Positions 16,755-27,194 of a stretch of DNA of 64,000 nt are shown one piece after another. The stretch's first letter is position 1. Each line of letters starts with the position of its first letter. The position numbers and the translations under genes are program-made. The notes under the pieces are model-generated. The model was not told the origin of the DNA. It made no database searches and worked only from the letters and a program-made list of their open reading frames with translations. Origin of the DNA: Longimicrobiales bacterium (GTDB taxonomy: Bacteria; Gemmatimonadota; Gemmatimonadetes; Longimicrobiales; Gaopeijiaceae); NCBI GenBank assembly GCA_965226375.1, contig CBDDCX010000008.1, positions 1,632,001-1,696,000 on the forward strand. Direction: 5' to 3'.

Positions 16755-17786
16755 CTACCGCAGTAGCGACTTCGCGACCATCGCGTGCACTCCCACGTTT
16801 CCGTCCACCAACTCCGTGATCCGCAAATCGACCGCCATGGAGACCACCGAGTACGCCTCTCCGCTCGTGAGATCGAGTCGCTCCTGCAGGAACTCCACCG
16901 TCTCGCGAATCGCGATCTCGGTGGCATCCTCGAGGTCTGGAGCGAAGCCCATGAGGATGTGGTGGGTGGGAGTTTCAGCGCGGGGCCAATCGAGCGTCTG
17001 GTCCTTCAACACCGTGAACTGAAGCCTCCCGCGAAGTGACGTCTCGAGGCCGGTCTGGTCCACCTCCCCGTCACCCTGCGCGGCGTGTCCGTCGCCCACC
17101 TCGAAAAGCGCCCCGGCCACCCAAACCGGAATGAAAAGTGTGGTTCCGGCCACCAATTCCTTGTTGTCCATGTTGCCGGCATGGCGCCCAGGGGGATTAC
17201 TACTCACCCTGCCCGAGTCGGGTGGAGGGGCGACGCCCATGCTTCCGAAGAAGGGATGGAGCGCTACGGTCACTCCGGGAGCGATTTCGGCCCGACCCTG
17301 CTCGCGGTCGATCCGGATGAGGCGGGAACGACGGTCCTCGTCACAAAGTGAACGGACGAATCCGGAACATCCGTTGTACCCGTAGTCGATCGAGTAGTCG
17401 ACCGAAAGAATTCGCACCTCCAACACGTCTCCAGGCTCCGCGCCCGCCACATGGATCGGACCCGTCAGGATATGGCCCCCCGGCCCCCGGTCCGTAACTT
17501 GATCGTAGATCGCGGCAAGCTCAGGCTGCACTTCGGCGGCAGGCAGTCCCATGCGGACGAGGCGCGCCGGGCTGCTTGTGAGCATGGTCGTCACCTCGAC
17601 CACGTCACCGGATTGCACGGTGAGTACTCCGGGCTTGGTGGGGTCGTAGTGTCCGAACGCCACGGTGGTCGGGCCGGCGAGAAGCCGATGCTGGGCCGGC
17701 CGTGTCTGGGCGTGGCCTTGGGCGGGGGGCGCCAAGCACATCAGCGCGACGACGTGGGCCGAGATCACAGGCTTAGAGGAGAGCAT
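16755..17786 (-). CDS. Exported acetamidase/formamidase family protein
   Basis: HILTGPIHVAGAEPGD, AGNMDNKEL, GDGHAAQGDGE; SD GGAAGG before MLSSK, then signal peptide. Confidence 0.88.
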   Translation of the reverse strand: MLSSKPVISAHVVALMCLAPPAQGHAQTRPAQHRLLAGPTTVAFGHYDPTKPGVLTVQSGDVVEVTTMLTSSPARLVRMGLPAAEVQPELAAIYDQVTDRGPGGHILTGPIHVAGAEPGDVLEVRILSVDYSIDYGYNGCSGFVRSLCDEDRRSRLIRIDREQGRAEIAPGVTVALHPFFGSMGVAPPPDSGRVSSNPPGRHAGNMDNKELVAGTTLFIPVWVAGALFEVGDGHAAQGDGEVDQTGLETSLRGRLQFTVLKDQTLDWPRAETPTHHILMGFAPDLEDATEIAIRETVEFLQERLDLTSGEAYSVVSMAVDLRITELVDGNVGVHAMVAKSLLR

Positions 17787-17990
17787 GGCTTTTCCTTCCG
17801 TCTGATCAGCGTCGGTGGGCCTTCCCCACCGGTCTCCGCTGGCAGCTTCATACAGGCTTGGAGGCCCAGTGACGATAGTCAAGCGACTCTTGGCCCTACG
17901 GGCCTTCGCCACCGAACTCCGCCACCGTCCGCGCCCCGCGTCGTCTCTGCGTACGAAACACTGGAGGCGTTCAGGCCGTAGAAGGAACGT

Positions 17991-18662
17991 ATGAAAGCTC
18001 AGACTAAACGTAAGCTCACGTTCCTGGGTGGTTTCGCCGTGTACTTCGGTGCGCTCTGGTTCCTGTGGGATACAGCCGCGATATATCCCTTGAAGGTCTT
18101 TGTCGTGTTGCTCCACGAGATCAGCCATGCCGTAGTGGCTGTTGCGACGGGCGGCACCATCGAACGCATCGTCCTGGACCCCAACCAGGGCGGGGCATGC
18201 TACTGCCCTGGCGGGAACGCCTTTGCGACCCTCTCCGCCGGGTACCTCGGCAGCCTGGCGTGGGGTGGCCTGCTCGTCACCGCCGCGCAGGCGAAACGCA
18301 TCAACAGCCGCTGGGTGGCGGGAGCCGCCGGGGTCTTGGTAGTCGCGCTCACCATCGCCTACGTCCGGAGCACGTTCGGGTTCGGGTTCGGGATCGCGTT
18401 TGGTCTGGCTCTGGTGATCGGGGCCGTAAAGCTATCGACGGCGGTCAATCAGGGAGTGCTGCTCACCCTTGGGCTGACCAGCTGTCTCTACGCCATCCTC
18501 GACATCAAGAGTGACATTCTGGACCGGCCGGAGCTCCAGTCCGACGCCGCGATGTTGGGCGACCTGACGGGGATACACACCGTGGTCTGGGGTAGCCTGT
18601 GGATTACGGTCGCAGTCCTGGCCAGCGCCTGGTTGTTCCACCGGTCGTATCGTAACGCCTGA
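17991..18662 (+). CDS. M50B-like membrane metallopeptidase
   Basis: HEISH, SAGYLG, SDA motifs and multiple TM helices. Confidence 0.88.
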   Translation: MKAQTKRKLTFLGGFAVYFGALWFLWDTAAIYPLKVFVVLLHEISHAVVAVATGGTIERIVLDPNQGGACYCPGGNAFATLSAGYLGSLAWGGLLVTAAQAKRINSRWVAGAAGVLVVALTIAYVRSTFGFGFGIAFGLALVIGAVKLSTAVNQGVLLTLGLTSCLYAILDIKSDILDRPELQSDAAMLGDLTGIHTVVWGSLWITVAVLASAWLFHRSYRNA

Positions 18663-18665
18663 CCG

Positions 18666-18681
18666 ACACCACATGTAGTGG
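18666..18681. promoter_or_regulatory. NrdR-box-like operator
   Basis: ACACCACATGTAGTGG matches the C.A.AT.T.G core of consensus acaCwAtATaTwGtgt; weak second copy 31 bp downstream. Confidence 0.45.
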
Positions 18682-18717
18682 TGTGACGGCGTGTTACACC
18701 CACCTGTCAGTTACTCG

Positions 18718-18746
18718 TTGATCTCACCGGCTCGGCCCCGTAGGTT
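18718..18746 (+). promoter_or_regulatory. Sigma70-type promoter
   Basis: TTGATC-N17-TAGGTT. Confidence 0.55.
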
Positions 18747-18872
18747 GCCGTTGACCTATGGACGGTCTTGGGCCGCCCCAGAATCCCAGAGAGGGACAAC
18801 GGACGCGGACCGCGGGTCCTCGAGCCCGCCGGCGATAAGCCCACAGTCGAACTGAAATGAGGAGGTGATCAA

Positions 18873-18935
18873 TTGTCTAGTCCATGTAGCCTGTCCAGCC
18901 TGGCAAGGGCAAGCGATCGCCGCTTCGGTTTGTAG
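18873..18935 (+). CDS. Candidate 20-aa micropeptide MSSPCSLSSLARASDRRFGL
   Basis: AGGAGGTGATC (18860-18870) immediately before TTG; lies between the promoter and terminator. Confidence 0.45.
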   Translation: MSSPCSLSSLARASDRRFGL

Positions 18936-18995
18936 GAAGCCGAATCGGCTTCAGCTGTTCGCGCCATCAGCGGCCATCGCGCCGGGTTGCGACAG

Positions 18996-19043
18996 AAAAA
19001 AACGCGCCGTCGGGAGTATGTGACCCGACGGCGCGTTTCTTTT
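18996..19043. terminator. Bidirectional intrinsic terminator
   Basis: Perfect 15-bp stem AAACGCGCCGTCGGG/CCCGACGGCGCGTTT with A-tract before and T-tract after. Confidence 0.88.
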
Positions 19044-19081
19044 CATCCAGCCGCCCCCGTGGGGCGGCTCAGGCCTGCGTG

Positions 19082-19660
19082 TCAGCCGAAGTAATCCGGA
19101 GCATTCCCCGGCTTCCATTTAATGTTGCAGCCGACGCTGGGGCGATGTTCTTCGGAAAGGGGCCTTCCCTCCAGAACGGCGTCAGCGGCCATCCTCAGAT
19201 CATTCCCGGTTACGGGCAGGCCGTTGCTCGGCCGGCTGTCGTCGAACTGCCCTCGGTAGACCAGCCGCCCATCTCCGTCGAAGAGAAAGAAGTCGGGCGT
19301 GCATGCTGCGCCGTAGGCTTTGGCCACCGATTGATCCTCGTCGAACAAATAAGGGAAGGTGTAGCCGACCTCCTCCACCTCACGAGCCATCATCTGAGGG
19401 CTGTCTGCCGGATAGGCTTCGACATCGTTCGCGTTGATCCCCACCACGGCGAGCCCCTGCTTCTGGTAGTCACGAGCGAACTCTGCAAGCTGAACTCGCA
19501 GGTGCTTCACAAACGGACAATGGTTGCAGAGGAAAGCCACCAGCAGACCCGGTGCGTCTATGAATTCGTCCCTCGAGACGGTCCGACCCTCGGTGTCGGG
19601 GAGCGAAAATGCCGGAGCCTCCATACCGATAGGGGCCATTGTCGATGCGGTCTTGACCAC
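19082..19660 (-). CDS. Thioredoxin-fold AhpC/TSA family protein
   Basis: FLCNHCPFV, AACTPDFFLFD, YRGQFDDSRP, SVGCNIKWK. Confidence 0.92.
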   Translation of the reverse strand: MVKTASTMAPIGMEAPAFSLPDTEGRTVSRDEFIDAPGLLVAFLCNHCPFVKHLRVQLAEFARDYQKQGLAVVGINANDVEAYPADSPQMMAREVEEVGYTFPYLFDEDQSVAKAYGAACTPDFFLFDGDGRLVYRGQFDDSRPSNGLPVTGNDLRMAADAVLEGRPLSEEHRPSVGCNIKWKPGNAPDYFG

Positions 19661-19780
19661 GGGTCCTCCTGAGCCTCGATACCGGAACGGCGACGTGTCG
19701 CTCCACCGATCCGGTACCCAAGAGTGCCAGACGTGGGTCCGGACCCTCGGCTCAGTGAGGGTCGCCTACTACATCCACCT

Positions 19781-22627
19781 CTACTCGCTGCGCAGCGATT
19801 CCATGGGGTCGACCCGGGCCGCGCGGGTAGCGGGAAAATAGCAGGCCACATAGGCCACGGACGCCAGGACCAACGGCACGGGCACCAAAATCCAGAGATC
19901 GGTAGCCGACACGCCGAAGAGCAGGCCGGACACCAAACGCCCAACGGCAACGGCGGTAGGAACACCAATCGCGATCCCCGCCAGGATCAGGGTCAAGCCC
20001 TCGCGAAGGACCATGCTGCGAACCGTTGATCGCGCCGCGCCCAACGCCATGCGCACGCCGATCTCCCTCCTTCTCTGGCTCACCGAAAAAGCCATTACTC
20101 CCACCACCCCGATCATCGACAGGAGGAGTCCGACAACACCAAACGAAAGCAGCACGGCGCTTCGGAAGCGGGGCCCGGCGACGGAGCCCCGTAGGAGTTG
20201 CTGCCCGGTCTGGACGTTGTCGACGGGAATGGTCGAGTTAACGGACTGGATGGCGCTCCTGATCTGAGGCGCCAGGGACGCCGGGTCCATATCGGCCCTG
20301 ACCGCGAGCGTCATCCCTCGGGAGATGCCGTTCCACGGCTCTTGTACGGCTGGCAGATAGACGTGAGCCCGCGGCGGCTCTCCGGGACCGTAGTGGCGGA
20401 CGTCGCTCACGATCCCAACGACCTCCCATGTCTCACTGTGAATGCGAATGGGTGTTCCCACTACCCGCTCGTCCGGGGCCCAGAACATCTCCGCGGTGGA
20501 CTTGCTGACTACAGCCACACGGACGTCGTCCTTACCATCCGCACGCCCAAGCATCCTGCCCTGGAGAAGGCGCACGCCGAGTGCCGAGAAGGCGCCGGGC
20601 GTCACGGAGCGCACCTCGGCACACTCTCCCTCACCCGGGGCCGGTGGGGGAAGGTCTTCCCGCCTGGTACCGTCACACGAGTGGTTGTCGGACAGAGGCA
20701 GAATGTCGATGGCACCCACGGCCTGAACGCCCGGCACGGCGCCGACGGCACCGAACACTCCGTCGTACAACGCTTCGGCTTCATCTTCGTCGAGGTCCCA
20801 CCAGGCGGATCCGTGTAGGTCCATGGTCACCAAGGTCTCCGTTGATACTCCGACATCGACCGCACCCAGTAGCCACAGGCTCCGTACAAAGAGCCCCGCT
20901 CCGACGAGGAGCACGACCGTCAAGGACAACTCGGCCACTACCAACGCGCGCCGAAGACGTCCCCGGGCTCTTCCACCTGTGCCCTGCCGTTCGCTCGCGC
21001 CTATGGCGAAGCTGCCGGTGCCACGGGTCCCATGAACCGCTGGAATGATGCCGAAGAGGAGCCCCGTGAAGACGGATACTGCGGCCGTGAAGACGAGAAC
21101 CGCCGAGTCGATGCCGATCCCCTCGAGACGCGGCATGGCGCCCGCTGCCAATCCGACCACCACATCCAATCCGAGGTAGGCCAGCGCCACACCGACGACC
21201 CCTCCGAGCACGGCCAGGACCAGACTCTCGGACATGACCTGGGCTGCGAGACGACCGCGGCTGGCCCCCAGCGCACGACGCACGGCAACGTCGTGTTGAC
21301 GCTCCGCCGCCCGACCGAGAAGGAGATTGGCCACGTTGGCACAGGAGATCAGGAGCAGGAATCCGACGGCGCCGAAGAGCACCATGATCCCTCGCCGGAC
21401 ATCTCCCACAATCAATTCGCGAAGGGGTACGGCCACCATGCTCTGCTTCGCATTCTCCTCTGGATAGGCCTCGGCCAGCCTTGTCATGATCGTCGCCAGC
21501 TCCTCACCGGCCATCTCGACCGTGGCCCCAGCGGACAGACGAGCGACGCCCTTCCAGGACCGGCCCGAGCGGAACCAGTCTGGGGCCTCGAACCACGGAG
21601 TGCGCCAGACTTCGATCGACGAATTATCCATGCCTGACACCGGATCTTCGAACATGCGGGGGGTAACCCCCACGACCTCATACGCCTGATTATCAAGTTG
21701 TACGGTCTGCCCGACCACACTCAAATCGCCACCGAAGCGTGTCTGCCAGAGGCCGAAGTCCAACACGACCACCGGCCTGCGGCCCTCCCCCTCCTCTTCT
21801 TGGTCGAAGAAACGACCCAACACCGGCTCCACGCCGAGCACACCGAAGTAGTTCCACGATACGGTGAGACCCCGAACCACCGCGGCGTTGTCAGCCTCCG
21901 TGAACGCCGGCCTCCACGAGGACGCTCCCGCAACCGACTCGAGGGTGGTCGACTGAAGCGACACATCTCGAAGGTTGGGATAGGAGACGTTGCCGTGTTC
22001 GGGAGAAGCCTCGTTGATCCCTCGCAGGCCTACCAGAGCGGCGGGGTCACCGAGGACGAGCGGGCGGAGTAGAACGCCCTGAACGATGCTGAAGAGAGCC
22101 GTATTGGCCCCGATTCCCAACGCCAGCGTGAGTACGGCCACCACCGCAAAGCCCGGCCTCCTACGTAACCCCCGTACCGCCATCGCCAGGTCCTTACCAA
22201 ACCCATCCATCGTCACCCCTCCCGCCAACAAGTATGCAGCATCCGGAACCGCACCGGCGGCCCGCACCACGAACAGCCTCGATCCCACCTCTCCACCCGG
22301 CCAAGCGTGCCGGCGGCCTGTAACTCCGCCCTTCGATGCGACAACTACCGCCATCGCCAGGTCCTTACCAAACCCATCCATCGTCACCCCTCCCGCCAAC
22401 AAGTATGCAGCATCCGGAACCGCACCGGCGGCCCGCACCACGGGATCCCACCTCTCCACCCGGCCAAGCGTGCCGGCGGCCTGTAACTCCGCCCTTCGAT
22501 GCGACAACTCACCCAGCCATTCGCTCCGCCAATCCCGGCGCACCGATCGTGGGACGAAAAGACCCGCAGCCGAGATGATGGCCCCACACAGGGCGCTATC
22601 CCAGGGGAAGCTTGCCTTCAAGGGCAT
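19781..22627 (-). CDS. Duplicated orphan ABC permease (ADOP, MacB/FtsX-like) with N-terminal tandem duplication
   Basis: TLALGIGANTALFS, LLISCANVANLL, EIGVRMALGA, PATRAARVDP; no ATPase gene adjacent. Confidence 0.9.
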   Translation of the reverse strand: MPLKASFPWDSALCGAIISAAGLFVPRSVRRDWRSEWLGELSHRRAELQAAGTLGRVERWDPVVRAAGAVPDAAYLLAGGVTMDGFGKDLAMAVVVASKGGVTGRRHAWPGGEVGSRLFVVRAAGAVPDAAYLLAGGVTMDGFGKDLAMAVRGLRRRPGFAVVAVLTLALGIGANTALFSIVQGVLLRPLVLGDPAALVGLRGINEASPEHGNVSYPNLRDVSLQSTTLESVAGASSWRPAFTEADNAAVVRGLTVSWNYFGVLGVEPVLGRFFDQEEEGEGRRPVVVLDFGLWQTRFGGDLSVVGQTVQLDNQAYEVVGVTPRMFEDPVSGMDNSSIEVWRTPWFEAPDWFRSGRSWKGVARLSAGATVEMAGEELATIMTRLAEAYPEENAKQSMVAVPLRELIVGDVRRGIMVLFGAVGFLLLISCANVANLLLGRAAERQHDVAVRRALGASRGRLAAQVMSESLVLAVLGGVVGVALAYLGLDVVVGLAAGAMPRLEGIGIDSAVLVFTAAVSVFTGLLFGIIPAVHGTRGTGSFAIGASERQGTGGRARGRLRRALVVAELSLTVVLLVGAGLFVRSLWLLGAVDVGVSTETLVTMDLHGSAWWDLDEDEAEALYDGVFGAVGAVPGVQAVGAIDILPLSDNHSCDGTRREDLPPPAPGEGECAEVRSVTPGAFSALGVRLLQGRMLGRADGKDDVRVAVVSKSTAEMFWAPDERVVGTPIRIHSETWEVVGIVSDVRHYGPGEPPRAHVYLPAVQEPWNGISRGMTLAVRADMDPASLAPQIRSAIQSVNSTIPVDNVQTGQQLLRGSVAGPRFRSAVLLSFGVVGLLLSMIGVVGVMAFSVSQRRREIGVRMALGAARSTVRSMVLREGLTLILAGIAIGVPTAVAVGRLVSGLLFGVSATDLWILVPVPLVLASVAYVACYFPATRAARVDPMESLRSE
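22175..22509. repeat. Tandem duplication (~163-bp unit; one copy 8 nt longer)
   Basis: 22175-22346 and 22346-22509 identical except CACGAACAGCCTCGATCCC vs CACGGGATCCC. Confidence 0.95.
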
Positions 22628-25884: not shown

Positions 25885-27194
25885 GGTACAGCCTACCCTG
25901 ATCCTTTACACAATGGCCTACACTGATGGTTGACAGGTTCCTATCAACCAGGGTTCTGCAACAAGGAGAGCCCGATGGACTGGAACCGGTCGACCATGTA
26001 CGAGCAAAGAGTACGCTTCATCCTCGAAGTGCAACAACGGACGTTCAGTTTCGCCGAGTCCTGTAGGCGCTACGGTATCAGCAGGACCGCGGGATACACC
26101 TGGTGGAATCGCTTCCGCGCAGAGGGATTCGAGGGACTGCAAGAGCGATCGCGCCGACCCCATCACTGCCCGCACGCCGTGGAGGAGCCGATCGTCGAAC
26201 ACGTCGTCGACCTGCGTCAGCGCTACGGATGGGGATCACGCAAGATCCGTAAACTCACAGCTGAGAAGTTTGGCTCGGCCCCAGTTCGCAGGACGATCGA
26301 TCGCATCTTCGAGCGTCACGACCTGATCACGAAGAAGCGCAGACGCTCCGGCAAACCGGGCCACCCCGGCAAGCCGCTCACTGCGATGGATGAGCCCAAT
26401 GCGGTCTGGACCGTCGACTTCAAAGGGCAGTTCAAGATGCGCAACGGTCGCTACTGCTACCCCCTCACGATCCAGGACGGCTTCAGCCGGTTCCTGCTCG
26501 AGTGCACAGGGCTGTATTCCACGTCGATCGAGCTCGCCAAGCCTGTGTTCATCAGGACTTTCCGCGAGTTCGGTCTGCCCGCCGTCATCCGCTCCGACAA
26601 TGGTACGCCCTTCGCTTCCATCGGCCTCGCTCGCCTCACACGCCTGAGTGCCTGGTGGATCCGCCTCGGTATCCGTCCTGAGACCATCGAGCCGGGTAAG
26701 CCGCAGCAGAACGGCCGACACGAACGCATGCACAGGACCCTCAAGCGTGAAGCCACTCGCCCGCCCAAGGCCAACCTCAGTGCCCAGCAGCGCCACTTCA
26801 ACGACTTCCGCCACACATTCAATCACATCCGCCCCCACGAGGCGCTCGACGACGCTACTCCCCATTCCGTCTACCGATCGGCTCTTAGAGCCTACCCCGA
26901 CGTCCTTCCGCCCATCGAGTACCCTGAGCACTTCGAGGTCCGTAAGGTCTCTACAAACGGAGCCATCCGCTGGCACTCGCGTTGGATCAACATCAGTTCG
27001 GCTCTGGGCAACGAGTTCATCGGGCTCGAACCCATCGGCCCCGCTCTGTGGCAGGTCTACTTCGGTCCCACTACCCTCGGGTGGTTTGACGAAGAACTCT
27101 TCGTCATTTTCGACACCCACGGTAACACAGGACGTAACCCAATCTGTTAACCATCAGCTGGCACACTTGTGTTAACCATCAGGTGCGCTGTTCA
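25885..27194 (+). mobile_element. IS481-family insertion sequence
   Basis: ~51-bp imperfect terminal IRs (GGTACAGCC... / ...GCGCTGTTCA), each with two CTGATGGTTAACA-like sub-repeats; splits the permease at FNL|RNS; exact TSD ambiguous. Confidence 0.9.
25975..27150 (+). CDS. IS481-family DDE transposase
   Basis: HTH; WTVDFKG, RSDNGTPF, PQQNGRHERMHRTLK, RPHEAL; SD AAGGAG. Confidence 0.93.
   Translation: MDWNRSTMYEQRVRFILEVQQRTFSFAESCRRYGISRTAGYTWWNRFRAEGFEGLQERSRRPHHCPHAVEEPIVEHVVDLRQRYGWGSRKIRKLTAEKFGSAPVRRTIDRIFERHDLITKKRRRSGKPGHPGKPLTAMDEPNAVWTVDFKGQFKMRNGRYCYPLTIQDGFSRFLLECTGLYSTSIELAKPVFIRTFREFGLPAVIRSDNGTPFASIGLARLTRLSAWWIRLGIRPETIEPGKPQQNGRHERMHRTLKREATRPPKANLSAQQRHFNDFRHTFNHIRPHEALDDATPHSVYRSALRAYPDVLPPIEYPEHFEVRKVSTNGAIRWHSRWINISSALGNEFIGLEPIGPALWQVYFGPTTLGWFDEELFVIFDTHGNTGRNPIC

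Follow-up and report, generated by a model that had tools for sequence, protein, structure and literature searches.

The closest described systems are the rre small mRNAs, rreB of Bradyrhizobiaceae and rreR of Rhodobacter/Roseobacter (Hahn et al., RNA Biol 14:1353, PMC5711450). Their hallmark is a perfect complementarity of 16-17 nt to the 3' end of 16S rRNA, and their reported distribution covers alphaproteobacterial orders only. The rreB transcript measures 165 nt, matches 16S rRNA over 17 nt and contains a frame of 14 codons that starts with GTG; it co-sediments with 30S subunits and is translated weakly. Exchanging its start codon for a stop lengthens the half-life from 10 to 37 min, and a product of 60 nt has been seen. 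Overexpression of rreB by 20-fold leaves growth unchanged, and simple capture of 30S subunits is doubted for this RNA. The RreB and RreR peptides are conserved within clades, and the synthetic peptides are unstructured. A further named RNA, the Caulobacter sRNA CC2171 (Rfam RF01867), was validated by Northern blot in Methylorubrum (bioRxiv 10.1101/2022.01.24.477521).

The window analyzed here is a stretch of 64,000 nt from a Longimicrobiales bacterium of the phylum Gemmatimonadota. The unit of interest occupies 18753-19043 on the plus strand, 3' of a promoter at 18718-18746, and sits in a gap (18663-19081) that is bounded by the convergent genes of an M50B peptidase and an AhpC/TSA protein. 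A first-pass annotation had named the gap between convergent genes, the promoter boxes, an 11-nt Shine-Dalgarno sequence (SD), a TTG-started ORF and a 15-bp terminator, and all of these are where it had placed them. It had overlooked a long stem, an internal copy of the anti-SD, an invariant GCCC and an optional 5' domain. The complete layout is as follows.

18718-18746, plus strand: sigma-70-type promoter, TTGATC (18718-18723), 17 nt, TAGGTT (18741-18746); from the sequence, position kept in relatives.
18753-19043, plus strand: predicted transcript of about 290 nt; pieces of RNA contigs.
18753-18835, plus strand: optional 5' domain with a 5' hairpin, a GGGCC/GGACC helix around a variable hairpin, and a GCGGG/CCCGC hairpin; present in 34 of 114 copies.
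18839-18842, plus strand: GCCC without variation, which may pair with the ORF's GGGC (as a pseudoknot) or with a GGGC of the 5' domain; alignment A2.
18860-18870, plus strand: extended SD AGGAGGTGATC, 11 Watson-Crick pairs and one G-U; pairing with the genome's own 16S 3' end.
18873-18935, plus strand: 20-codon ORF starting with TTG, with a TAG stop ending at 18935; sequence and comparison of 114 copies.
18891-18995, plus strand: long stem 18891-18904/18981-18995 with an 8-nt bulge (18905-18912), inner helices and the stop codon in a hairpin loop; covariation.
18907-18921, plus strand: internal anti-SD mimic GATCGCC and anti-start GGGCAA, forming the predicted masking hairpin of the nascent RNA; helix counts in 97 copies.
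19000-19043, plus strand: intrinsic terminator, possibly bidirectional, with a 15-bp stem (19000-19038), an A-run before it and a T tract to 19043; sequence, fold and two-sided changes.

The region folds with a z value of -3.1, and one of 200 shuffled sequences folds equally well. Directly behind the terminator, ahead of the stop codon of the convergent AhpC/TSA gene, there is a second GC-rich hairpin (19049-19069), which is perhaps a 3' stabiliser of that gene. The tRNA-like ends and the tag frame of a tmRNA were looked for in the window and were absent from it; the tmRNA of this genome is on contig C7. Elsewhere in the window, two perfect interleaved direct repeats of 97 nt (starting at 22175 and 22346) and 66 nt (22281 and 22444) lie in 22175-22509, where a MacB/FtsX permease gene that follows a PadR gene has its 5' end. 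Part of the N-terminus is duplicated there, either through an error of assembly or through a duplication that happened very recently. An IS481-type transposase with an integrase core is encoded at 25930-27150.

A consensus promoter scan listed no promoter-like site at its threshold, and the terminator at 19000-19043 likewise went unlisted; what supports the promoter assignment is therefore that relatives keep it at the same place. In a promoter search run without a shuffled control, all 34 copies that carry the 5' domain have a similar promoter, which puts the predicted start 104-137 nt ahead of the SD; of the 59 copies that lack this domain and have a call, 31 have their predicted start 26-31 nt ahead of the SD. 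The second value implies that the minimal RNA begins just ahead of the GCCC. Six copies without the usual 5' domain (L074, L075, L078, L079, L091 and L097) have a predicted start about 85-100 nt before the SD, with a promoter call in five of the six, which suggests that they carry a second, unrelated type of leader.

Parts of the stretch are contained in 17 RNA runs, mostly as small shares, and four runs from four metatranscriptome studies were compared with it over 17900-19800. Eight of the nine contig pieces from these runs fall within 18753-18996, several of them being the copies of relatives; the ninth, of 40 nt, runs on into unlike sequence. One piece begins at 18753, the predicted start, in contigs that show neither strand nor true ends. 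The absence of RNA contigs over the flanking genes was not counted as evidence, because the runs had been found using this very stretch. The RNA is probably expressed, and the transcript from about 18753 that the first-pass annotation had anticipated agrees with the strandless contigs, which fall on the unit in all four runs.

The unit is conserved, as a nucleotide search of relatives revealed: of 61 related genomes, 53 gave a match at E<=0.1, and 41 of these also at E<=1e-5. A pattern scan of named genomes returned 18 stretches, 16 from Gemmatimonadota and two chance matches within coding DNA (L038 and L045), which were dropped; L048, a cut duplicate, was also left out. With a covariance model built from 45 copies and 15 candidates scored per genome, one full-length match each was obtained in 72 of 151 genomes of the phylum, and 15 of the 16 genomes in the window's own family were matched. 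The model found no match in the other 79 of the 151 genomes, among them all 20 from five distant families. A looser pattern matched 113 of the 151 genomes, but it also produced many matches in controls and was not used. Pooling gave 116 loci with 114 distinct copies. The site at each locus was picked by a score favouring a TC second codon, GCCC and GGGC, so that the counts of these features are slightly inflated. Three of the 114 copies (L020, L171 and L206) and one Pseudomonadota locus (L103) come from the unpublished genomes G056, G216, G037 and G677, and no claim hangs on these alone.

The downstream neighbour in the 114 loci is co-directional in 59, opposed in 53 and lacking in two according to heuristic ORF calls, and the neighbouring protein families varied as well (78 scanned proteins from 39 loci). 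This variation in orientation and family indicates that the gene is free-standing. Together with its own promoter and terminator, the conservation and the RNA contigs, it bears out the earlier proposal of a stand-alone transcription unit: the unit is a genuine free-standing gene for a small folded RNA with a very strong SD and a 20-codon frame. There are local groupings. At seven loci (L020, L025, L028, L029, L031, L032 and L036) the gene lies between a divergent glycine-cleavage H gene (six of the seven) and a co-directional acyl-CoA dehydrogenase gene, the upstream and downstream frames of L020 having been mis-assigned by the heuristic. In another group it adjoins a KDO transferase gene and a gene for a CAAX protease or DsbA.

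These data bear on whether the unit could be the leader or attenuator of a downstream gene, or a base-pairing sRNA released from such a leader. The parts of an attenuator are a short ORF, alternative folds and a terminator. The unit has all three, the alternative folds being predicted, and a released product has a precedent in the 60-nt fragment known for rreB (PMC5711450). A ribosome-dependent attenuator, however, has a co-directional target gene and a competing antiterminator, a description that does not fit the unit as analyzed. The downstream gene is convergent in the window and opposed in the 53 loci mentioned above, the neighbours are unrelated across lineages, and the terminator stem stays closed in both predicted folds of the window's copy. 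Together, these results make it very unlikely that the unit serves as an attenuator or is the source of such an sRNA.

The 11-mer AGGAGGTGATC occurs four times in the 4.2-Mb genome, one occurrence being the 16S gene itself. Its duplex with the genome's own 16S 3' end, of 11 Watson-Crick pairs plus one G-U, has an energy of -22.3 kcal/mol, compared with a best value of -20.5 and a median of -6.4 among the candidate starts of 6,469 long ORFs (all open frames of at least 200 codons in the genome, shadow frames included). The SD is thus stronger than any of these candidate starts. The complementarity to 16S rRNA ranges from 10 to 17 nt over 92 copies and is mostly 13-14 nt; at least 16 nt are matched in five of these 92 and in 27 of 43 Pseudomonadota copies, all measured against the 16S tail of the window genome. 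The start codon lies 7 nt past the GGAGG core in 77 and 6 nt past it in 15 of the 92 copies, and 7 nt past it in all 43 Pseudomonadota copies. It had been pointed out that the start codon follows only 2 nt after the match. This is literally so but misleading, since the distance of 7 nt from the core is normal and falls within the 5-9 nt given in PMC5711450. An overlapping mini-frame ATG-AGG-AGG-TGA at 18857 is present in two of 30 copies.

Among the 114 copies the start codon is TTG in 108, GTG in five and ATG in one. The ORF has 11-23 codons in every copy and 20 codons in 56. Core-type copies, which contain both the GCCC and the GGGC, have 16-23 codons in 95 of 95 cases; the short Gemmatimonadota copies of 11-14 codons are without the GGGC and approach the minimal rre form. 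A stop at 14-23 codons is found in frame in all 95 core-type copies, versus 22 of the 95 for frame +1. In 94 of 97 copies the distance from the start to the GGGC is 31, 34 or 37 nt, which means that indels in this region are frame-keeping. The frame-keeping indels and the kept in-frame stop together imply that ribosomes elongate to the end of the ORF. This speaks against an untranslated RNA that traps or stores small subunits and has its ORF only incidentally. The genome's strongest SD, the weak UUG start and the stable stem from codon 7 would suit such a trap, and rreB does co-sediment with 30S subunits; rreB is nevertheless weakly translated, and its 20-fold overexpression is without effect on growth (PMC5711450). 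We consider a trap of this kind quite unlikely.

The peptide itself appears in a different light. The pN/pS ratio over 51 copies, in which related pairs are non-independent, is 0.89 for codons 2-20 and 2.68 for codons 7-11, and the third positions of codons 12-16 are fixed at 98-100%. Three copies shift the frame and nonetheless keep a nearby stop; these are L030 (from the 2.0-Mb genome G027), L031 and L034, which have a 1-nt shift between the start and the GGGC and still reach a length of 21-23 codons. The 5' domain is missing from L030, an AT-rich copy. These values, the range of ORF lengths and the fact that peptides are unrelated between lineages and unstructured as synthetic RreB and RreR (PMC5711450) all disfavour an ordinary micropeptide gene, whose product would be the peptide of 20 residues, with a structure that serves only to hold output low. 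What such a gene would explain is the kept start, frame and stop position with all three stop codons in use (TAG 44, TGA 41, TAA 29), the pN/pS of 0.32 in the unpaired codons 2-6, the free third positions of codons 4 and 17, the Ser at the second codon in 101 of 114 copies and the conservation of RreB and RreR within clades (same source). On balance we judge this explanation unlikely. Judged from the sequence comparison, it looks as if translation up to a stop near codon 21 is selected and the peptide is not, perhaps with the exception of its first residues; the low ratio in codons 2-6 means that the N-terminal peptide may matter.

The first-pass annotation had offered two readings, a micropeptide mRNA or a small RNA that captures 30S subunits. 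Both point to the right kind of RNA, given the weak translation of rreB and its co-sedimentation with 30S subunits (PMC5711450). The term micropeptide mRNA is weak because the frame is kept and most of the peptide is not under selection at the protein level, and simple 30S capture is doubted for rreB.

Next to the frame, it is the structure that is conserved. In alignment A2, which comprises 45 sequences, the main helix of the long stem is formed by codons 7-11 and the strand that precedes the terminator, and 10 of its 14 pairs show two-sided changes. Such changes occur in 28 of 44 pairs of the whole structure, ten of which are in the terminator (10 of its 11 counted pairs). The values for the whole structure were reached by none of 500 shuffles, and slid controls were 35-41% paired compared with 86% for the real structure. 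The long stem from codon 7 to the terminator is therefore supported by covariation.

A second fold is predicted, in which GATCGCC is the pairing partner of the SD's 3' half and GGGCAA that of the start codon. Its 7-bp helix is complete in 90 of 97 copies and its 6-bp helix in 78 of 97. This masking fold dominates the predicted nascent RNA in 66 of 97 copies and the full-length RNA in 20 of 97; its median energy is 3.8 kcal/mol above that of the rod, with a difference of no more than 5 in 48 of 89 copies. For the window's own RNA the predicted probability of the masking helix is 0.98-1.0 for prefixes ending at 18940-18980 and 0.0 from 18995 onward. The internal anti-SD is stronger than in shuffled sequences at p<=0.1 in 38 of 97, 15 of 17 and 24 of 44 copies of three sets. 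The masking helix shows no two-sided change in the 45 sequences of A2 and a single one in L141; the SD and the long stem also constrain its bases. An alternative 3' helix between CTGTTCGCGCC and the 3' strand is eye-catching in several copies. It was rejected as unsupported: it is 73.8% paired versus 71.6% in shuffles with two-sided changes at chance, and shuffling of this segment, which would complete the second fold, left the median energy gap at 3.8 kcal/mol. As a model built on predicted folds, a two-fold switch, in which a hairpin that masks the start gives way to an open rod, has in our estimate an even chance of being correct.

The GCCC upstream of the SD is invariant in alignment A2 (45 of 45). 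In the 114 copies, 95 have both the GCCC and the GGGC of the ORF, 13 have neither and six are discordant; the two motifs are mostly lost together, and the losses cluster in a few lineages. The pairs that flank GCCC:GGGC are formed in 47 of 95 copies compared with 51.9 in shuffles and show no covariation, so that this pseudoknot is to be taken as hypothetical. The 5' domain of about 85 nt, found in 34 of the 114 copies, has 98% of its alignment cells paired and two-sided change in two of nine pairs. A model of the domain gives one match per genome in 19 of 40 genomes, and the listed places coincide with the gene wherever the position of the gene is known. The domain has its own near-invariant GGGC, which could take the GCCC. 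The fold of the alignment picks this pairing, and its probability in the window's own sequence is 0.01. A pseudoknot between a loop of the domain and the linker was discarded, a partner of at least 3.5 pairs being present in only 14 of 33 copies and at two different places.

One could go further and regard the rre-type RNAs as an old, cross-phylum, one-per-genome switch gated by ribosomes. The long Gemmatimonadota form would then have a sensing domain of its own, and the GCCC would toggle between the GGGC of the 5' domain and that of the ORF, so that binding of a ligand or protein to the 5' domain would determine whether the genome's strongest SD is kept caged or made available to the 30S subunit. 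We hold this to be improbable. If true, an RNA without control over any downstream gene would possess a riboswitch-like input.

The explanation which accounts best for the data, and which is probably correct, is that the unit is the Gemmatimonadota counterpart of the rre small mRNAs and does its job at the ribosome, not mainly via the peptide. In this scheme the RNA would be made from its own promoter and ended at its own terminator, as the sequence, the conservation and the RNA contigs suggest. During synthesis the internal anti-SD and the GGGCAA are predicted to fold back onto the SD and the start codon. Once the 3' strand is finished, the long stem would take the masking bases and free the site, with the predicted consequence that only complete transcripts dock well. 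By analogy with rreB, the RNA would then bind the 30S subunit through the genome's strongest SD and initiate poorly at the UUG. Elongating ribosomes would have to open the stem before they stop at codon 21, and their passage would turn the RNA over, as may be expected from the start-codon-dependent decay of rreB. The level of the RNA might, more tentatively, report or buffer the free initiating subunits.

The rre RNAs have been described once, in Alphaproteobacteria, and the rre-like unit is present as a single copy in roughly every second genome sampled from another phylum. A single copy in a second phylum with a kept frame and a drifting peptide argues that docking and translating are themselves selected. 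Members of the Gemmatimonadota family align well, their structure covaries, and nature supplies variants that have or lack the 5' domain and the GCCC/GGGC pair, so that sharply defined mutants can be planned. Should the switch be real, it would be a novel means by which an RNA gauges initiation capacity.

Comparison with Rfam showed no match at the cut-off. Over 17000-21000 there were four weak matches at E<=10, none near its cut-off; the best placed, RF01867 (CC2171), covers the SD, start and terminator with 19.9 bits versus a cut-off of 75. No family reached its gathering score in 16 other Gemmatimonadota loci, seven of them long-form. The weak match led to the alphaproteobacterial members of CC2171. 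These share with the unit the SD, a start followed by Ser, an ORF of 18-32 codons in a long stem, and the terminator, the site being present in 16 of 17 loci. Their inner structure, however, does not align with it, and most CC2171 loci are without the upstream GCCC or the leader.

Of 401 Pseudomonadota genomes, 61 contain the start pattern, each a single time, and the reversed control gave no match. Of the 61 loci, 30 were viewed and have the same layout with unrelated peptides, the Ser codon being part of the pattern; the RF01867 cut-off catches three of 20 such loci. In the phylum of Rufibacter six of 101 genomes matched, and the four loci viewed out of seven were without such a unit. A 14-codon GTG copy (L132) adjoins tRNA-Gly, the context of rreB, and fits rreB; an 18-codon copy from Antarctobacter (L051) has the length of rreR and fits it. 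Model R1 matches 45 of 46 Pseudomonadota loci at 12-34 bits, which is not proof of homology because the loci were chosen for their SD. In a Pseudomonadota subgroup (L061, L063-L065, L067, L070, L107, L119 and L120) GGAGCAGCCT late in the ORF forms a hairpin tip and can also pair with the SD. An FMN riboswitch (L118:1761-1912) lies just 3' of an rre-like gene.

Literature searches over listings and the openings of abstracts, subscription papers aside, found no Gemmatimonadota report of such RNAs and no follow-up naming rreB. Nor do the papers searched mention, for such RNAs, TTG as the start codon, a GCCC upstream that never varies, a 5' domain of about 85 nt that may be present or absent, or a predicted switch from masking hairpin to rod. 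The available main text of PMC11109978 is without mention of Gemmatimonadota, rreB or CC2171, and its supplement may bear on novelty.

The suggestion that the unit is an undescribed system has to be given up, as the kind is already described: the architecture is that of rreB/rreR (PMC5711450) and of Rfam CC2171. Like rreB and rreR, the unit is a stand-alone small RNA with its own promoter and terminator in a context that varies between lineages. Its SD match extends beyond GGAGG into GATC and is followed, 7 nt past the core, by a non-AUG start and a short ORF, and the peptides are unrelated across lineages. The predicted stem over the SD and start of the rre RNAs has a counterpart in the masking fold, which is predicted to dominate the nascent RNA in 66 and the full-length RNA in 20 of the 97 copies and shows no covariation in A2. 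The short ORF is conserved in the clade as in rre RNAs, and the rreB-like L132 and the Gemmatimonadota copies both have GATCGCC within the ORF. The unit differs in its match of 11 nt instead of 16-17, in its TTG instead of GTG, a weak start behind the match all the same, in an ORF of 20 codons instead of 14 or 18, and in a length of about 290 nt versus 165. It also has the upstream GCCC, which occurs in two of 44 Pseudomonadota copies, and the 5' domain, and it belongs to a phylum other than that of the alphaproteobacterial orders of rre. What this locus contributes is a long form that includes the 5' domain, a GCCC for which two partners are possible, a test of frame versus peptide, and RNA contigs. 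Since it falls short of the 16-17-nt hallmark and of the Rfam cut-off, we file the unit as a variant of the rre kind and not as a member. The Gemmatimonadota unit quite probably works like rre, and common descent with the rre RNAs is likely.
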